Part shown: piece after piece, positions 13,159 to 41,075 of the stretch
Numbering within the stretch: position 1 is the first letter of the stretch
How the letters are laid out: every line of letters begins with the position of its first letter
IMG/VR virus record: IMGVR_UViG_2917393062_000004
Source of the DNA: a virus
Taxonomy: Duplodnaviria; Heunggongvirae; Uroviricota; Caudoviricetes
DNA: 41,075 bases
Reading direction: 5' to 3' (one strand)
The notes under the pieces: model-generated
What the model was told of the DNA's origin: nothing
The model's input: only the letters and a program-made list of their open reading frames with translations
Databases searched by the model: none
Made by a program: the position numbers and the translations under genes

Positions 13159-13509
13159 TTGATGCGTGATATGTATGAAGTATTGGACCGCTGGGGAGCA
13201 TGGGCTGCAGCAGAAAATAGTGGTGTGGACTGGCAGCCGATAGCGGCTGGTTTCAAGGGACTTTTACCACACGGTAAAAAGTCACGTCTCCAGTGTGATG
13301 ATGATGAAGGCATCATGATAGATAGTTGTGTGGCTAGGTTGCGTAAATATAAGCCGGAAGAGTATGAGCTGATAATTGCTCACTTTGTTATCGGTATCTC
13401 ATTACGCACTATTGCGAAGAAGAGAAAATGCTCTGATGGGACTATAAGAAAAAAGTTGCAAGCTGCATTGGGATTTATTGATGCAGTTATATATATAATA
13501 CATGGGTAA
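13159..13509 (+). CDS. Late-gene antitermination protein Q (QuuD-like family)
   Basis: 116-aa ORF; N-terminal VLDRWGAWAA...WQPIAAGFKGL matches recalled QuuD/Q family; located just before the lysis region. Confidence 0.75.
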   Translation: MMRDMYEVLDRWGAWAAAENSGVDWQPIAAGFKGLLPHGKKSRLQCDDDEGIMIDSCVARLRKYKPEEYELIIAHFVIGISLRTIAKKRKCSDGTIRKKLQAALGFIDAVIYIIHG

Positions 13510-13516
13510 TTTATTA

Positions 13517-13535
13517 GACGGCCATATTGGCCGTC
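13517..13535. terminator. Perfect 8-bp GC-rich hairpin between convergent Q and cargo operon (possible bidirectional terminator/stabiliser)
   Basis: GACGGCCA-TAT-TGGCCGTC flanked by AT-rich sequence; overlaps stop codon of the minus-strand gene; no clean U-tract. Confidence 0.4.
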
Positions 13536-14721
13536 AGCTAAATAAATATGTAATAGCATAAGGCGTAAGTAAAAAGTAGAATCTAAATGTAAGATATAAG
13601 CCACATAAAACTATAATTCCTAATGAGGCAAAAACAACTTTCTGAACAAGCAATCTTGTGGTTAAACTATCAAATGTATCCTTTATATCTTCGTAAATAG
13701 CCTTGAAGTTATATTCTGCTTGTTGTTTTTTATGATTTAACTCATCATTTATTGCTGTTAAAGTTTGCCATTGATTAAATAGAACAAATAGAATCATAAT
13801 AGTGAAGAACAATGCACCCAACACTACAGCTGTGTTTATTAATGCTTGACTATCCCAACCATTAGCCTGCTTCATTTGAGTCGCAACGATAATTGTTGCG
13901 ACGGGGATACCTAATATCTGATTTTGTATGTCACTGAATACTTTATGTATTTTCCCCATCTCTTCTATTTTGGCTACTCGTAACTGATCCAGTATTTTCT
14001 CGTAAGAAAAACCAGAAACGAATACTTTGTATCCTTTTTGATAACTTTCATAAAGTTGTCCTAAATCCCTTAACATGAAGGAAAAAGAGGTTTCTTTAGT
14101 TTTAGATTCACATGATGATTTTATACTACTTGCTAAAATAGTAAGTTTTTGATCTTTATGCGTATCTTCTGCAAAGTTTGCGATCAAATTATGAATCAGA
14201 TCTCCATTAACATTCATAAGATCATCGCTAGAATAATTTACTGGAATTTTTAGTACGTTGGATTCGACGAATACCAATTCAAAATTTGTTTCATCTAAAT
14301 AAGCAGAACAATCTTTGAATAAAGTAATTAAGCTCAAAACATCTCTGTACTTGGATATAATAGCAGGCGACTTTTTATCCCTGTTGTGATAATTAAGTTC
14401 GATTATAAAGAAGTTACTGGCTTCCTTTATCCTATTTTTAGGATTTTTTAAATACTCATTAAAAGAGAAATGTAGCTGCCCCAATCGTAATTTGGGGGGG
14501 GTTATATGTAAGGTTATAGTTTGGCCTAACTTAATGTTGCCAGATTCAAGGGTGATGCCAAAATCATGGGGATTCTCTGTGATATCGTTGATGATGTCAC
14601 AGAGCTCCTCGTTTGAAAGAATGAGTGATGCTTCAGATAGGGTACCTGCAAATGTAGCGGCCTTGTAAATAGTCACTAAGTCTTTGAAGGTTCTCTGATT
14701 GTTACTGCTCATCCTCTTCAC
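13534..14721 (-). CDS. Cargo protein B: 395-aa protein with large N-terminal soluble domain and 2-3 C-terminal transmembrane helices; no recognised domain
   Basis: Hydrophobic segments ALINTAVVLGALFFTIMILFVLF and VVFASLGIIVLCGLYLTFRFYFLL near C-terminus; GTG/ATG start overlaps the stop of the upstream gene (translational coupling); GC content about 35-38 percent versus about 50 percent in flanks. Confidence 0.75.
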   Translation of the reverse strand: MKRMSSNNQRTFKDLVTIYKAATFAGTLSEASLILSNEELCDIINDITENPHDFGITLESGNIKLGQTITLHITPPKLRLGQLHFSFNEYLKNPKNRIKEASNFFIIELNYHNRDKKSPAIISKYRDVLSLITLFKDCSAYLDETNFELVFVESNVLKIPVNYSSDDLMNVNGDLIHNLIANFAEDTHKDQKLTILASSIKSSCESKTKETSFSFMLRDLGQLYESYQKGYKVFVSGFSYEKILDQLRVAKIEEMGKIHKVFSDIQNQILGIPVATIIVATQMKQANGWDSQALINTAVVLGALFFTIMILFVLFNQWQTLTAINDELNHKKQQAEYNFKAIYEDIKDTFDSLTTRLLVQKVVFASLGIIVLCGLYLTFRFYFLLTPYAITYLFS

Positions 14722-15736
14722 CTAATTCTGATAAGATCTCTGATCTTAGCGTATCCGGAATCTCGGTAAGTATCAATTTATCGTTTTCTGAATCATAAAG
14801 AACGCTGCCATCATGCAAGGCCGCACGCTCGAATTTCAGAGACCAATGTTTGGACTTTCCTTTGAAACTAACAAGCCCACGTATAACGTTGCCATCAGGC
14901 ACGAACCCATCAGAGAACTCCAGATCGTCATTGGTTAACTTTTCAACTAACAACTCAGGAGCAGTTGGCCATATCTCGTTTGCAAAAATTTGAGTGTCGA
15001 AAGTTTCACCAGAACGATTTAAATTTTTTAATTTTTCATGAGCCTTATTTAGGAACTCTTCACGTGCCTCTGGTTCAAAACCTCTTTCAGTAGCAAATTC
15101 TAAAAGTGCATTCCGTAATTTTGTTGTTTCTTGTTTGGCAATTAGAATATCGTTGCAACCTAAAAACTTTTTGAAATAACCTGCTACTGAATTTTGCCCC
15201 TTTAGAAAGCTAATATATCTCTCTTTGCCATTCTGGCGCCCAGTTAAGTCAATTCGTCCCGCTACTCGAAGTTTAGCAATGTCTAGATATTCACTTTCTT
15301 GAATTTCAAAATCGTGGACTGAAGAGCCAACTGCTGATGTTAGGATTGCAACCATCAAATAATGATTTCCATTTACCTCATTATGGGCAATTATTACATA
15401 ACCACCAGTAGACATTGATTCATCATCGGCTCTGGCTTTTAAATGATTGATCATTCGGATACTAGTATCATAAAAACTATGTGTTTTATTTACGAAATAA
15501 TCATCAACGATATTACCCATAGGGTAACTATCGCGGTCATCTTCAAATTTCCCATATCCTTTACCTGCTCTCCCAGAGTACCTTTCAGTAAGTGCGTTAG
15601 AGAGGTCTTTTGATGCTTGCTGAACAGGTTTTTCTGAAGGACAAGGAATAATGGTGGCTAACCCCTGTTGTTCCTTGTTCATAATGTGAACAATAAACTT
15701 ATGAGTGATATTAGTGGGGGTCGCTGATGCAGTCAT
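14702..15736 (-). CDS. Cargo protein A: YejK/NdpA-family nucleoid-associated protein homolog (344 aa)
   Basis: Shares recalled YejK motifs in order (GGYVII, YLMVAILTS, YLDI, GRIDLT, RYISFLKG, YFKKFLG, C-terminal LILTEIPDTLR); AAGGA RBS; low GC. Confidence 0.7.
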   Translation of the reverse strand: MTASATPTNITHKFIVHIMNKEQQGLATIIPCPSEKPVQQASKDLSNALTERYSGRAGKGYGKFEDDRDSYPMGNIVDDYFVNKTHSFYDTSIRMINHLKARADDESMSTGGYVIIAHNEVNGNHYLMVAILTSAVGSSVHDFEIQESEYLDIAKLRVAGRIDLTGRQNGKERYISFLKGQNSVAGYFKKFLGCNDILIAKQETTKLRNALLEFATERGFEPEAREEFLNKAHEKLKNLNRSGETFDTQIFANEIWPTAPELLVEKLTNDDLEFSDGFVPDGNVIRGLVSFKGKSKHWSLKFERAALHDGSVLYDSENDKLILTEIPDTLRSEILSELGEEDEQ

Positions 15737-29687: not shown

Positions 29688-31520
29688 ATGGCTGAATTTG
29701 AGCTTAAGGCGTTGATCACCGGTGTCGACAGGCTTTCACCCGCGCTGTCGAAAATGCAAAAGAAAATCCGGGGATTTAAACGCCAGGCGGAAGAAGCGTC
29801 ACAGGGTGGGCTGGCGCTTGGTGGAGGACTGGCAGCGGGGCTGACGCTTTCCCTGAAATCTTATGCCGATCAGGAAAACGCCGCCACCGGGCTGAAAGTC
29901 GCCATGATGGATGCGAATGGCGAGGTTGGAAAGAGCTTTCAGGACATCAATAAACTGGCTATTGGCCTGGGTAACCAGCTTCCCGGTACAACGGCTGATT
30001 TCCAGAACATGATGCAGATGCTGGTGCGTCAGGGGATCCCGGCAGAAAACATTCTGGGTGGTGTGGGTAAAGCGACAGCTTATCTTGCGGTACAACTGAA
30101 AAAAACACCGGAAGCGGCTGCTGAGTTTGCTGCAAAGATGCAGGATGCTACCGGAACGGCGTCAGAAGACATGATGGGGCTGTTCGACACTATCCAGAAG
30201 GCGTTTTATCTGGGCGTTGACGATACCAACATGTTGTCCTTCTTCACTAAAACCAGCTCTGTTCTGAAGATGGTGAATAAGGACGGTCTTCAGGCTGCAC
30301 AGAGTCTTGCCCCCATCAGTGTCATGATGGATCAGATGGGGATGAACGGGGAGTCGGCAGGTAATGCCCTGCGAAAAGTTATCCAGTCCGGATTAAGCGT
30401 TAAGAAAATCAGGGACGTCAATAAAATCATGGCCCGCCAGAAACTCGGGGTACAGCTCGATTTTACTGATGGCAAAGGGAGTTTTGGCGGTCTTGATAAC
30501 ATGTTTAAGCAACTGGCAAAGCTGCGAAAACTGACCGACGTTAAGCGAACAGGTGTACTTAAGGCAATATTTGGTGATGATGCCGAAACCCTTCAGGTGG
30601 TCAATGCTCTGATCGATAAAGGAAAGGATGGTTACGATCAGATCCAGCAGAAGATGAATAAACAGGCCAGCCTGAATAAACGTGTTCAGGCACAGCTTGG
30701 TACGCTGTCCAACCTGTGGGAGGCAATGACGGGGACCGCAACTAACGGTCTTGCAGCTATTGGCGGCGCATTTTCTGGTGACGCTAAAAATATCACGCAA
30801 TGGCTGGGGGAGTTGGGGGAAAAATTCACGAAGTTTGCGGATGAAAATCCCCGGGTTATTCGCGGCGTCGTCGGGCTTGCTGCCGGTCTTGCGATTCTGA
30901 AACTGGGATGGATGGGCGTGGGCAGTGCCATCAGTATTGTCAGCAGGATCATGTCGATGACGCCGATTGGCATGATTGCGACGGCGATTGCTCTGGCTGC
31001 GGGATTAATTATCACTAACTGGGATGTTGTCGGACCTTATTTCAAGAAGCTCTGGGAAACCATTGGTCCTTATTTTGAGGCTGGCCGGGAACTTCTGAAG
31101 AAGGTTTTTGCCTGGTCGCCGCTGGGGATGGTGATCAATAACTGGGGACCGGTTGTTAAGTGGTTTCAGGATATGTGGGATAAGCTGAAGCCGATTATTG
31201 AATGGTTTACCGACAGTTCCGGTGACACGGACGATACCATTAACTCGGCGCAGTGGGGCGCGGGTGCTTATGATGCTTATGGGACGGGAATACCGGCACG
31301 GGGATACACTCCTTATCCGGCGGTGGATCCGGCTCAGGCAAACAACGCCTCCGATGCCACAGGCTCGAATCCCTTCATGATTAATAAAGCTACCGCGCCA
31401 AAAGTTGATGGTGAGATCAAGGTATCATTTATAAATATGCCACCAGGTATGCGGGTTACGGAAACACGCTCCAGTGGCATTGATATAAATCACGATGTTG
31501 GCTATACCCGATTTTGGTAG
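29688..31520 (+). CDS. Tail tape measure protein
   Basis: 610-aa ORF with Gly/Ala-rich hydrophobic segments; position after chaperone. Confidence 0.85.
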   Translation: MAEFELKALITGVDRLSPALSKMQKKIRGFKRQAEEASQGGLALGGGLAAGLTLSLKSYADQENAATGLKVAMMDANGEVGKSFQDINKLAIGLGNQLPGTTADFQNMMQMLVRQGIPAENILGGVGKATAYLAVQLKKTPEAAAEFAAKMQDATGTASEDMMGLFDTIQKAFYLGVDDTNMLSFFTKTSSVLKMVNKDGLQAAQSLAPISVMMDQMGMNGESAGNALRKVIQSGLSVKKIRDVNKIMARQKLGVQLDFTDGKGSFGGLDNMFKQLAKLRKLTDVKRTGVLKAIFGDDAETLQVVNALIDKGKDGYDQIQQKMNKQASLNKRVQAQLGTLSNLWEAMTGTATNGLAAIGGAFSGDAKNITQWLGELGEKFTKFADENPRVIRGVVGLAAGLAILKLGWMGVGSAISIVSRIMSMTPIGMIATAIALAAGLIITNWDVVGPYFKKLWETIGPYFEAGRELLKKVFAWSPLGMVINNWGPVVKWFQDMWDKLKPIIEWFTDSSGDTDDTINSAQWGAGAYDAYGTGIPARGYTPYPAVDPAQANNASDATGSNPFMINKATAPKVDGEIKVSFINMPPGMRVTETRSSGIDINHDVGYTRFW

Positions 31521-31548: not shown

Positions 31549-31576
31549 TTGTAAGTCATAAATAGAGTGATAGAAT
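31549..31576 (+). promoter_or_regulatory. Candidate sigma70 promoter with extended -10 for the tail-module moron
   Basis: -35 TTGTAA, 16-bp spacer, TGaTAGAAT extended -10 about 35 nt before the ATG. Confidence 0.4.
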
Positions 31577-31611
31577 TAATGCACATTTAGAAAAATGTTA
31601 ATAGGCGAAAA

Positions 31612-32142
31612 ATGAAAGGCTATATCACAGCAAGTGTAATTCTTGGAGCAGCGGCTATTTTTTCATCTCTCATAATCTCTGGCAACATCTCCTTTAAAGA
31701 TGAACATATTATTCAGTTATCTGGAGGAGCCATAAAACTTGGTGATGTTTATAAAGAAAATAAATTGATAAGTGCAAAGATTATTTTTCCAGATAATCAG
31801 GGTGAACAGATTCTTGTTGTCGACGGCAATCCTGAAAACTTTAAGGAGGATTTTCAGGAGAAATTAAATAAAGTAATAAAAACTTTAAATGCGTCAAAGA
31901 AAAAAGATGAAGAGAAAGTTAGCCTGGATAATTTAAGTGTTATTGAAGAGTCTAAACTAGAGCTCGTTTCTGCGGTGCGTTACTCTGCTCAGTATGTTCC
32001 TATGTTTACTCTGACGCTGGACAAAAAAGAAATTACCATGCCTAAAAATACGGTAATATTTCCATTTGCCAGCGATGAAACAGCTAAGTATTTAAATGAA
32101 CAACAGCAAAAGTATAAAGATTCGTTGTTTCTGACTCGCTAA
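31612..32142 (+). CDS. AT-rich moron: exported/membrane-anchored hypothetical protein (176 aa)
   Basis: N-terminal signal/TM segment (ITASVILGAAAIFSSLIISG); GC about 30 percent; own promoter and strong terminator; between tape measure and baseplate genes. Confidence 0.65.
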   Translation: MKGYITASVILGAAAIFSSLIISGNISFKDEHIIQLSGGAIKLGDVYKENKLISAKIIFPDNQGEQILVVDGNPENFKEDFQEKLNKVIKTLNASKKKDEEKVSLDNLSVIEESKLELVSAVRYSAQYVPMFTLTLDKKEITMPKNTVIFPFASDETAKYLNEQQQKYKDSLFLTR

Positions 32143-32159
32143 TTAATAAAATTCATTAC

Positions 32160-32190
32160 AAGGCCACCTTCTAATAGGTGGCTTTTTTAT
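32160..32190 (+). terminator. Intrinsic terminator of the moron
   Basis: AAGGCCACC-TTCTAATA-GGTGGCTT followed by TTTTTT. Confidence 0.8.
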
Positions 32191-32203
32191 TTTCGGAGTG
32201 TAT

Positions 32204-33532
32204 ATGACGTGGAAAGACAGGCTTCAGGATGCGTCATTTCGAGGTGTGCCGTTTAAGGTTGAAGAAGAAAGTGCGGGAACCGGTCGCCGTGTGGAAACAC
32301 ATGAATACCCGAACCGCGACAAGCCCTATACCGAAGATCTGGGAAAAGTCACTTTCCGCCCGTCCATCACAGCTTATGTGGTGGGAGATGACTGCTTTGA
32401 CCAGCGCGATCGCCTGATTGAAGCGCTGAATAAACCAGGTCCCGGCACGCTTGTCCACCCGACATATGGTGAGCTGAAAGTCTGTGTTGACGGGGAAGTT
32501 CGGGTCAGCACATCGAAAAGTGAAGGGCGTATTGTCCGCTTTGACCTGAAGTTTGTCGAAGCGGGAGAACTCTCTTACCCCACATCAGGCGTGGCGACGG
32601 CGCAGACGCTGATGTCATCCTGTTCTGCACTGGATGACTGCATCAGTGACAGCTTCAGCGGTTTCAGTATCGATGGCGTGGCGGATTTTGTGCAGAACGA
32701 CGTTATCGGTAATGCCAGCACAATGCTTGGGTATGTTTCTGATGCGATGAAAGTGGTGGATTCTGCTGTATCGGATGCCGCCAGGCTGTTGCAGGGGGAT
32801 ATCTCGGTACTTATGCCGCCGCCATCGTCAGGAAAAAATTTCGTTGAGCAGGTGCAGAAAATGTGGCGTACCGGGAAACGCCTTTATGGTAACGCCAGCG
32901 ACCTGGTCACCATGATCAAAACGCTTTCTGGTGTCAGCCTCGGCAGCGATTTGCAACCGCGCGGCGTCTGGAAAACGGACAGTAAAACCACCGCCACAGC
33001 GACGCAGCAGCGTAACATGGTTGCCAGCACCCTTCGTACGACTGCAATCAGCGAAGCGGCGTATGCCGTTACCCGATTGCCTGCGCCAACAACTTCTGCG
33101 GTGATGCAGAATGCCGCAGTGGGGCAGTCAACAACACCCGCGCAGAGCTCCGGCTGGCCTGCCGTCACGCATCCGGTGCTGAACAATGCACCGGCGGTGA
33201 AAAACACGGTTGACCTGCCAACGTGGGAAGAACTGACCGACATTCGCGACACACTGAATACGGCAATTGATAAGGAGTTGTCCCGTACAACCAGTGATGC
33301 GCTGTTTCTGGCGCTGCGCCGGGTGAAAGCAGATCTGAATGCGGATATCAACACGCGCCTTGAACAGTCTGCTCGGATCATTCAGCGCACGCCGGATGAG
33401 GTTTTACCCGCGCTGGTGCTGGCGGCGACTTGGTTTGATAACGCGGCGCGTGACGCGGACATTATCCGGCGTAATGCCATTACGCATCCCGGCTTTGTGC
33501 CGGTGATCCCTCTGAAGGTGCCAGTGCAATGA
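32204..33532 (+). CDS. DNA circulation protein (Mu gpN-like)
   Basis: N-terminal MTWKDRLQDASFRGVPF recalled as Mu N family signature; GGAG RBS before ATG at 32204. Confidence 0.75.
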   Translation: MTWKDRLQDASFRGVPFKVEEESAGTGRRVETHEYPNRDKPYTEDLGKVTFRPSITAYVVGDDCFDQRDRLIEALNKPGPGTLVHPTYGELKVCVDGEVRVSTSKSEGRIVRFDLKFVEAGELSYPTSGVATAQTLMSSCSALDDCISDSFSGFSIDGVADFVQNDVIGNASTMLGYVSDAMKVVDSAVSDAARLLQGDISVLMPPPSSGKNFVEQVQKMWRTGKRLYGNASDLVTMIKTLSGVSLGSDLQPRGVWKTDSKTTATATQQRNMVASTLRTTAISEAAYAVTRLPAPTTSAVMQNAAVGQSTTPAQSSGWPAVTHPVLNNAPAVKNTVDLPTWEELTDIRDTLNTAIDKELSRTTSDALFLALRRVKADLNADINTRLEQSARIIQRTPDEVLPALVLAATWFDNAARDADIIRRNAITHPGFVPVIPLKVPVQ

Positions 33533-40056: not shown

Positions 40057-40395
40057 AACCGCAGGCTCGTCGTATGCAAGAACGTGCTGCGGCTGGCTGG
40101 TGAACTTCCGATAGTGCGAGTATTGAATGATTTACAGCCGTTATTGATTTTACATATTTTTTGTATGAAAGGATTAGCGCTTCCTCCCACCGATCCTCCA
40201 TGACTTTACGCCACTGTCTCTAGGACTGCTATGTGCCAGTAGCAGACTAGTGATCGCTAGGCTTGAATTCATTCGTATTAGCGCCAAGTGGATAATAAAT
40301 GGTGAAATCCATTAGTCATTACTTTATCATAAGCTCGTTATATAAAGATTTTAGTATTCGTAATTCTTTTCTTTGTTTAAGATGATGAAAATTAT

Positions 40396-40448: not shown

Positions 40449-41075
40449 ATGAAAAAAATAATATATACTTTTTCTTTGGCTGTGGCTTTATTATTGGCGT
40501 TAAGATGTATCGCCTATATTGATTTTTCTGAAAAAGACATGATCAAGTCAATCATTCCTGCTTGGATTCAAGCCATTGGTAGCATTTTAGCAATTATTAT
40601 TGCCGGTATGATCTCGGCCAATCAAATTAAACATGAGAAACAGCTTGAAAAGAGAAAGGTAGCAGAGTCAGATTTGTCTAAAATGCATATAGTAAGAGCG
40701 CTGATAATACGTTCGTTAACTTTAATGAATGAGGTTCGTCAGGCAATTGAGCGTGGCGAAGAAAGCGACTTTCAGCAAGTGTCTCCTTGGACTATGCGTA
40801 ATACAAAACGTGCAATTGATAATTTAAATTTATTTGAAATACCAGAGGGGATGTTAGCTCTAGATCTGTTGGCTATAGGTCCATCTCTCGAGGAAATAGC
40901 AACCTTATGGGAGCGGTGTATGGAGGAGTCACTACATACTGAAAATAACAAGCCAACTATTGATTCTTACAATGAGCTTGATCAAGGCTCTCAAGAGGTT
41001 TTGAAAATATGTGAAGCCGCTTTTAAATTGGCTACACAAGAGGTTAATCGGCTTGCAGCTATCGTTAAAGAGTAA
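40449..41075 (+). CDS. AT-rich cargo gene: membrane protein with two N-terminal TM helices and helical cytoplasmic domain (208 aa)
   Basis: AGAGGGA RBS; TM segments FSLAVALLLALRCIAYI and AIGSILAIIIAGMISA; low GC; stop at last base of window. Confidence 0.65.
   Translation: MKKIIYTFSLAVALLLALRCIAYIDFSEKDMIKSIIPAWIQAIGSILAIIIAGMISANQIKHEKQLEKRKVAESDLSKMHIVRALIIRSLTLMNEVRQAIERGEESDFQQVSPWTMRNTKRAIDNLNLFEIPEGMLALDLLAIGPSLEEIATLWERCMEESLHTENNKPTIDSYNELDQGSQEVLKICEAAFKLATQEVNRLAAIVKE

Follow-up and report, generated by a model that had tools for sequence, protein, structure and literature searches.

A candidate envelope-directed moron cassette between the tape-measure and DNA-circulation genes of a Mu-type contractile tail module in an Escherichia coli prophage

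The DNA analyzed in this work, hereafter called the window, is a stretch of 41,075 nt deposited as the IMG/VR virus record IMGVR_UViG_2917393062_000004 (Caudoviricetes), in which a single AT-rich gene, here named the cargo gene, occupies a slot between two conserved tail genes of an SfV-like prophage. The left border of this slot is the gene for the tail tape-measure protein (29688-31520, + strand; 610 aa), as identified by matches to PF10145 (PhageMin_Tail, E 1.5e-26) and to the PHROG tape-measure families, and as annotated both in Escherichia coli S51 and in Escherichia phage SKA5, where it is labelled Mup42. The right border is a DNA-circulation or baseplate-hub gene similar to Mu gp43 (32204-33532, + strand; PF07157, DNA_circ_N, E 4.3e-34; PHROG 184), the start of which was taken to be the ATG at 32204 in accordance with RefSeq, the mechanical list of open reading frames (ORFs) beginning at GTG 32198. 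Between the tape-measure stop codon (31520) and the DNA-circulation start, the cargo gene (31612-32142, + strand) is the sole ORF of at least 40 aa on either strand. It starts 92 nt past the tape-measure stop and specifies a protein of 176 aa, identical to WP_000679479.1 and to a protein encoded by enterotoxigenic E. coli (ETEC) H10407 (ETEC_RS01640, NC_017633.1 325809-326339), which belongs to PHROG 5485 and to no Pfam family.

The cargo gene stands apart from its neighbours in base composition, its GC content being 34.3%, with 30% at third codon positions (GC3) against a GC3 of 55-59% in the flanking genes, and the whole 677-bp inter-gene segment having a GC content of 34.0% versus 51.1% for the tape-measure gene and 55.4% for the DNA-circulation gene. 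Upstream of the gene, a candidate sigma-70 promoter with an extended -10 element is located at 31549-31576 (+ strand), consisting of TTGTAA (31549-31554), a 16-nt spacer, and the sequence TGaTAGAAT, of which TG occupies 31568-31569 and TAGAAT 31571-31576. The transcription start predicted from it falls at ~31583-31585, which would leave a leader of about 28 nt. When the extended -10 TG is included, three such sites are present on the + strand of the 41-kb window, and a site of this kind arises in 1.4% of dinucleotide shuffles of the 91-nt spacer; judged on the sequence, the promoter candidate is better than chance. Promoter-like sites with at least 9 of 12 hexamer positions matching are also located 19-38 nt upstream of the ATG in the homologues L094 (11/12), L009 and L008. 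A weak Shine-Dalgarno-like sequence, AGGCGA (31603-31608, + strand), was read 3 nt before the ATG, with its AGG core 6 nt upstream. Downstream of the gene, an intrinsic terminator (32160-32195, + strand) is formed by a stem of 10 bp with a 6-nt loop (32160-32185), followed by the U-run UUUUUUAUUUU; its free energy is -15.6 kcal/mol (z = -3.9 versus shuffles), and it closes the cassette immediately ahead of the ribosome-binding site of the DNA-circulation gene. A scan against Rfam returned sub-threshold terminator-like matches to leader families and nothing more. On the - strand, an extended -10 promoter-like site (TTGCCA-17-AAAAAT, 31657-31685) is present within the cargo ORF and faces the tape-measure gene; it probably results from the high AT content.

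These features had in large part been proposed by an earlier model-generated reading of the letters alone (the sequence-only reading), which had placed a 176-aa ORF with an N-terminal signal or transmembrane segment, a candidate extended -10 promoter and a strong intrinsic terminator between the tape-measure and DNA-circulation genes. The position of the ORF, the promoter candidate and the terminator are all borne out, and the interval of 31549-32190 which it gave agrees with a unit reaching from promoter to terminator. Its estimate of about 30% GC holds for GC3, the total GC content being higher at 34%.

In order to place the encoded protein, it was compared with collections of protein families. 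The cargo protein matches PHROG 5485 over residues 1-176 of 176 (E 3.8e-108), a family beside which PHROG 34391 is listed and which lacks a functional annotation, so that membership names the family and explains nothing. In line with the sequence-only reading, which had recognized no domain in it, the protein gave no match in Pfam, in NCBIfam or among the defence models of PADLOC (PADLOC-DB v2), and a profile search of PDB sequences returned nothing below E 0.47. When 1.8 billion cluster representatives were searched exhaustively with a profile, 77 family proteins were recovered (representatives at 50% clustering), nearly all of 170-195 aa, the named sources of which are E. coli, Leclercia, Lelliottia, Edwardsiella, Mangrovibacter and Pseudomonas chengduensis. 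The members share the N-terminal helix, and full-length homologues extend down to about 20% identity. All 63 members that were aligned over their full length match PHROG 5485, and when these 63 were compared with Pfam, scattered chance matches of single members were obtained, none of them consistent. A literature search with the identifiers WP_000679479 and ETEC_RS01640 found no paper mentioning either.

The structure of the cargo protein was modelled with AlphaFold using the 63-sequence alignment as input, and the model reached a mean predicted local distance difference test score (pLDDT) of 90.9 and a predicted template modelling score (pTM) of 0.76. The modelled fold consists of a helix at residues 2-22, a short linker, a beta-hairpin (33-42) and a two-layer sandwich of beta-beta-alpha, beta-beta-alpha organization, with strands at 46-58, 65-72, 114-126 and 132-143 and helices at 74-93 and 149-171. 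The N-terminal segment expected from the sequence-only reading thus coincides with the modelled helix 2-22 (codons 31615-31677, + strand; rich in Gly, Ala and Ser), and the top 19-residue Kyte-Doolittle window of the protein, with a value of 2.1, lies at residues 5-23. Within the segment I5-G24 (mean hydropathy 2.1), Gly, Ala, Ser or Thr account for 11 of the 20 residues in a pattern that is conserved, small residues being retained at positions 7, 8, 12, 14, 18, 19 and 23 among the 63 members. Cysteine is absent from the sequence, which rules out a lipoprotein. Lys2 precedes the helix and an acidic stretch follows it, and the topology prediction that had been suggested together with the sequence-only reading, made here by the positive-inside rule, places the N terminus inside and the C-terminal domain in the periplasm.

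Alignment column statistics located the most conserved motif of the family at residues 32-49 (31705-31758, + strand), with the consensus [NH]-[IV]-[IL]-x-[LT]-x-x-G-x-V-x-L-G-x-V-Y-x-E. In the model this motif corresponds to the beta-hairpin right behind the membrane anchor (strands 33-36, 39-42 and 46-58), and the best-conserved positions of the family are [NH]32, G39, L43, G44, Y47 and E49 of the hairpin, together with N93 and Y124. A structure search, likewise suggested earlier, yielded one significant fold neighbour and no informative function from it: the sole neighbour is a 'lipoprotein' of Pseudomonas phage ventosus (BFVD A0A2H4P829; Foldseek E 1.1e-6), which aligns over 157 columns with a template modelling score (TM-score) of 0.56/0.66 and 16% identity. 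Like the cargo protein, this neighbour is phage-encoded and, by annotation, envelope-anchored; it differs in that the anchor expected from its annotation is a lipid and not a transmembrane helix, and its annotation as a lipoprotein points to the same fold on another envelope anchor.

The occupancy of the slot was then determined in related phages and in 5426 complete E. coli genomes. In SfV, SfII and SfI, the flanking genes are adjacent and ~50 bp apart with the terminator alone, giving a span of 1081 bp versus 1701 bp in the window, and in SfII nothing but an annotated terminator separates the two genes. The slot flanks are present in 1093 of the 5426 genomes (1238 sites; about a fifth of the genomes), the majority of these sites being empty with the same span of 1081 bp, and the cargo gene is missing from about 60% of related E. 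coli prophages. Where the slot is filled, it contains one of at least five cassettes, of which the ORF studied here is found in 179 of the 5426 genomes, with at least 99% identity in 179 of the 181 matching records. The others are an SKA5-type protein of 166 aa with a classical signal peptide (85 genomes; 31% GC; L001 2115-2615), which in phage SKA5 itself stands at the slot and is unrelated to the cargo ORF; an OB-fold protein with an N-terminal transmembrane helix (79 genomes; PF12869; L011 654-1100), encoded on the opposite (-) strand with its own terminator; a lipoprotein of 225 aa with an LLGGC lipobox (55 genomes; L012 712-1389); and a cytoplasmic protein of 125 aa with a bacterial PH domain (bPH_1; 28 genomes; L010 677-1054). 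All slot cassettes are AT-rich (31-42% GC), and four of the five cargo types, or three of the four alternatives to the studied ORF, are envelope-targeted. Comparison of the alternative cargos with the studied family by hhalign gave probabilities of at most 1.1% and thus no remote homology, and none of the four matched a PADLOC-DB v2 model. Terminators with other stems occupy the same position in SfII, in SKA5, in the PH-domain and lipoprotein cassettes and in the Leclercia homologues, and the antisense orientation of the OB-fold cassette indicates that the slot houses independent transcription units.

Homology at the slot breaks off on the left at the tape-measure stop codon and on the right where the terminator U-run ends, ahead of the ribosome-binding site of the next gene. 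No direct or inverted repeats flanking the cassette were found, on which ground a transposon-borne insertion was rejected, and this pattern of breakpoints without repeats points to exchange of cassettes via the conserved flanks and not to transposition. One copy of the cassette, in E. coli EC21Z-014 (L014), is split by a frameshifted IS5, and strain PD7 (NZ_CP074047.1) carries the cassette in two copies. In MS 69-1 (NZ_CP146678.1), one copy is chromosomal and the other comes from a 64-kb record classed as a plasmid; this record could represent a prophage in excised or episomal form, or an artefact of the assembly. A tblastn search of 50,697 deposited phage genomes found no copy of the cassette, which is therefore known solely from prophages and metagenomic viral contigs. 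The genome papers of SfII, SfIV and SfI report morons elsewhere in those phages and none at the tape-measure/DNA-circulation junction, which appears to be a previously undescribed cargo hotspot.

Homologues of the cargo gene in the same slot, with the order tape measure, cargo gene and DNA_circ_N, were retrieved from at least eight lineages. Their identity to the window protein amounts to 56-60% in Enterobacterales contigs, 53% in a Leclercia prophage, 41% in an Edwardsiella anguillarum prophage (a close-alignment scan of genome contigs gave one Edwardsiella locus), 38% in a Mangrovibacter prophage and 30-33% in two metagenomic contigs. For four of the loci, the identities of tape measure, cargo and DNA circulation to the window were 75/60/80, 79/56/69, 48/41/70 and 25/31/47%, the divergence of the cargo thus being roughly parallel to that of its neighbours, which indicates that the family is a long-term resident of the slot and not a recent arrival. 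Every same-slot copy has a GC content of 31-42% versus 46-56% for the flanking tail genes. A member of 29% identity shares a cargo cluster with DUF551 and KilA-N genes; the contractile-tail module around this cluster is of another kind, its tube being of PhiTE type and its baseplate of Pam3/E217 type. The ratio of nonsynonymous to synonymous substitution rates (dN/dS) was 0.078 between L004 and L009, the one pair with unsaturated dS, and about 0.04 (0.039) between the Leclercia copy L004 and a stand-alone copy in Lelliottia; by these estimates, the cargo gene is under strong purifying selection.

This stand-alone copy, in Lelliottia amnigena (L008 7800-8560), is an intact cargo gene just downstream of icd, all other phage genes having disappeared from the locus. 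The stretch homologous to the Leclercia prophage takes in about the last 125 nt of the tape-measure gene and continues through the cassette terminator, from which sequence remnant it is read that the cassette has outlived its prophage in Lelliottia. Its retention there points to a benefit that is independent of virion production. Two distant members of the family adjoin ordinary chromosomal genes (gluconate dehydrogenase and thioredoxin) on short contigs.

Morons in tail operons are a known class, with HK97 gp15 as the textbook case, and few of their products have an assigned function. Three of the four sequence-level features by which a moron is recognized (Juhala 2000; PMC3594210) are present at the locus, namely extra DNA between genes, deviating composition and a terminator, and the locus is very probably a moron cassette that encodes a membrane-anchored periplasmic accessory protein, the role of which would most likely be protection of the host. 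The description of the gene as a moron inserted in the tail cluster is in keeping with the empty and alternatively filled slots of relatives, the qualification being that the insertion is not recent. By its anatomy the cassette is a textbook moron; in its action it would be nearest to HK97 gp15, yet it stands outside gp15 and every characterized family.

HK97 gp15 is expressed from the prophage and stops genome entry without masking the receptor (Juhala 2000; Cumby 2012; PMC3594210), its specificity being set by the tail and the tape measure of the incoming phage (PMC3594210). Like gp15, the cargo gene forms a single-gene cassette of a tail operon, directly beside the tape-measure gene and with a terminator after it, and one N-terminal transmembrane helix, predicted in the case of the cargo protein, is common to both products. 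The two have no sequence relationship (hhalign probability of 0.2% with the family profile), and they differ in size and position: gp15 is a 62-aa protein with a short soluble tail, encoded upstream of the tape measure of a non-contractile tail, whereas the cargo protein has 176 aa with a predicted folded periplasmic domain of about 150 aa and is encoded downstream of the tape measure of a contractile Mu-type tail. P22 SieA acts specifically on the ejection apparatus of related phages (PMC10883804); it has another genomic location and belongs to another phage type (a podovirus), and no link to the cargo protein emerged among the Pfam and PHROG family matches, no direct sequence comparison of the two having been made. 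TP-J34 Ltp is, according to the accounts cited in PMC3952083 and PMC10883804, an envelope-tethered soluble domain that faces the incoming phage and targets the tape-measure protein, an arrangement similar to that predicted for the cargo protein; unlike the latter, it has a Gram-positive host, a lipid anchor and a helical repeat fold, and no structural match between them was found. Lambda Bor/Iss and Lom are AT-rich envelope morons expressed in the lysogen, which act at the outer membrane or surface in serum resistance or adhesion (PMC3594210). The cargo gene resembles them as AT-rich prophage cargo for an envelope protein, and differs from them in its unrelated sequence and in the predicted inner-membrane tether of its product.

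The best explanation overall, which is advanced tentatively, is that the cassette specifies a prophage-expressed envelope factor that would keep phage genomes from entering the cell, as HK97 gp15 does. In a repressed prophage, sigma-70 RNA polymerase would start at the extended -10 promoter (31549-31576) and produce a monocistronic mRNA of about 0.6 kb that stops at the hairpin 32160-32185. The prophage has a Q-type late antiterminator gene (13159-13509, + strand; PF06530, E 1.2e-44), and in lambdoid phages the Q-modified polymerase is expected to pass terminators in lytic growth; read-through of the Q-antiterminated late operon may thus add to the transcription of the cargo gene during that phase. 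The 176-aa product is predicted to be an inner-membrane protein whose N terminus faces the cytoplasm, so that residues from about 25 to 176 would form a compact two-layer alpha/beta domain on the periplasmic face, with the conserved motif at the membrane surface. There the protein might act in superinfection exclusion after adsorption, by disturbing, as HK97 gp15 and P22 SieA do, the genome-delivery step in the periplasm or at the inner membrane, and its target could be the tail-tip or tape-measure apparatus of the incoming phage, or an inner-membrane host factor needed by that apparatus. Exclusion is favoured because of the precedents of HK97 gp15 and P22 SieA, the envelope targeting of four of the five cargos, and the lasting linkage of the family to contractile-tail modules, and a function specifically directed at phages is accordingly regarded as possible, while falling short of probable.

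Several observations weigh against such an exclusion function or against the autonomous expression on which it would depend. On its hexamers alone (9/12) the promoter candidate is no rarity, the region having three such sites for an expectation of 2.5, and the Leclercia copies show poor conservation of its -10 element. Judged from the sequences of the empty sites, the terminator belongs to the slot and is not specific to the cassette; in the proposal of a self-contained transcription unit, the part stating that a terminator follows the gene stands, and the attribution of that terminator to the inserted unit does not. There is no homology to known exclusion proteins (gp15 at an hhalign probability of 0.2%). 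A non-essential role in the cycle of the phage itself would likewise be consistent with the conserved position of the gene and with its co-divergence with the tail genes. Lastly, strong exclusion of kin phages is weakly opposed by the co-residence of kin prophages: in a crude comparison, 7 of the 60 top cassette records had at least two tail-module places versus about 12% overall, so that a second kin tail module is not depleted, and PD7 has its double copy.

This lack of depletion is also in favour of a lysogenic-conversion factor that serves the host envelope and is not directed at phages, for instance in envelope physiology, stress tolerance, resistance to colicins or other toxins acting on the envelope, or host colonization, as Bor/Iss and Lom do for lambdoid lysogens; we consider this an unlikely account. 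The product is predicted to be exported or membrane-anchored, the Lelliottia cassette is intact and under purifying selection after loss of its prophage, distant members lie beside gluconate dehydrogenase and thioredoxin genes, and the related prophage of S51 has a Bor-like iss gene as well. A generic envelope factor, on the other hand, would leave unexplained why the family is repeatedly tied to contractile-tail clusters of two tail types; the predicted inner-membrane tether would hold the protein back from the cell surface, which is the site of action of Bor, Iss and Lom; and no similarity to known envelope enzymes or inhibitors was found in the Pfam, PDB sequence and structure searches. Somewhat less probable again is a non-essential late gene for the phage's own lytic cycle, transcribed mainly by Q-dependent read-through, be it a periplasmic regulator of lysis timing like T4 RI or a guard of infected cells and progeny against futile injection. 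The cargo gene has the same orientation as the late tail operon in which it lies, in a prophage that carries Q; its position has been kept, with a divergence roughly parallel to that of the tail genes; and its promoter is weakly conserved in some homologues. The Gly/Ala/Ser/Thr-rich helix I5-G24 is conserved, and we take it to resemble the signal-anchor-release (SAR) domains of T4 RI and SAR endolysins, which are weakly hydrophobic N-terminal helices able to exit the membrane, although its mean hydropathy is 2.1. Against such a role, the gene is absent in SfV, SfII, SfI and ~60% of the E. coli relatives and is swapped for unrelated, even antisense, genes; its low GC content is maintained in all same-slot lineages, unlike that of core late genes; the promoter candidate has an extended -10 element; and purifying selection acts on the stand-alone Lelliottia copy although the phage is gone.

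The sequence-only reading had also raised the case in which homologues would prove to be conserved structural tail components of related phages, and an AT-rich structural or assembly component of the Mu-type tail would be compatible with a position held between the tape-measure and hub genes in several genera. This is now effectively excluded and a structural tail protein was rejected, since the gene is absent, replaced or disrupted in phages and strains with the same tail module: the virion-forming, plaque-forming SfV, SfII and SfI lack it, SKA5 has an unrelated gene at its place, one copy is disrupted by IS5, and a lone copy is retained in Lelliottia. In addition, the numbering of SKA5, in which Mup43 follows Mup42, indicates no intervening gene in Mu, and the N-terminal membrane anchor predicted for the cargo protein argues against a structural component as well. 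The absence of any domain match in Pfam, NCBIfam and PADLOC could moreover be expected from a chance ORF in an AT-rich spacer, the probability of which is negligible; the conservation data refute it, with dN/dS values of 0.04-0.08, full-length homologues to about 20% identity, agreement of 63/63 members with PHROG 5485 and a pLDDT of 90.9.

With respect to the surroundings of the slot, the window begins with proA, followed by tRNA-Thr(CGT) at 1369-1444, an integrase gene at 1459-2622 and then a complete lambdoid-type prophage, the site of integration being the tRNA-Thr gene thrW of the E. coli chromosome. The prophage comprises the Q antiterminator together with a holin, a head module of HK97 type and a contractile tail of Mu type. 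Its gene order recurs in the annotation of E. coli S51, and among deposited phages the SfV, SfII and SfI group and Escherichia phage SKA5 come closest to it. AT content in the window peaks in an island at 13534-15736 (- strand; GC about 0.29), situated between the Q antiterminator and the holin, which contains two antisense genes. These encode a 343-aa NA37/YejK-like nucleoid-associated protein (PF04245, E 8e-69) and a 394-aa protein with no Pfam or PADLOC match. By its appearance this island is a further cargo unit, and its two genes may form a defence pair. Directly past a Pin-type invertase, where the prophage ends on the right, position 40449 marks the start of another AT-rich ORF (+ strand; GC about 0.28), which is open at the edge of the window (41075); it has N-terminal hydrophobic segments and no Pfam match, one of the three extended -10 promoter-like sites of the window lies upstream of it at 40377, and its position agrees with that of the O-antigen modification genes of SfV-type phages. 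In S51 (NZ_CP015995.1, about 3799988; L101 13989-14001), mcr-1.1 and a PAP2 gene are located a few kb past proBA, beside the thrW-integrated prophage and with no relation to the cargo gene. In the Leclercia-type loci (L004 10013-11808, and also L005-L007 and L009), two added genes for proteins of 503-520 aa and 94 aa, neither with a Pfam match, lie between the DNA-circulation gene and a gpP-like baseplate gene and may mark a second variable slot of the same tail module.

Envelope-level exclusion factors are known mainly from siphoviruses, podoviruses and T-even phages. The current work defines a compact, well-modelled and strongly constrained protein family that has no Pfam entry, together with its predicted membrane anchor and a conserved membrane-adjacent motif, as well as a slot that can be occupied by any of at least five exchangeable cassettes, in a tail module carried by about a fifth of complete E. 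coli genomes. It is conceivable, though rather doubtful, that PHROG 5485 represents the first superinfection-exclusion (or tailocin-immunity) family dedicated to contractile-tailed temperate phages. If so, an inner-membrane-tethered periplasmic domain would have co-evolved with the Mu-type tape-measure/hub module across Enterobacterales and would stop the tail tip of an incoming phage from penetrating or from forming a channel, and the tape-measure/hub junction would be a general defence hotspot, in which the signal-peptide, lipoprotein and OB-fold cargos would be alternative envelope-level blockers. Should exclusion prove false, this would point to the cargo protein as an envelope fitness factor on a very common type of prophage; should it prove true, the family would constitute a new exclusion family and the slot a new hotspot for envelope-level defences, and the cargo protein could be a candidate envelope-level defence against contractile-tailed temperate phages.

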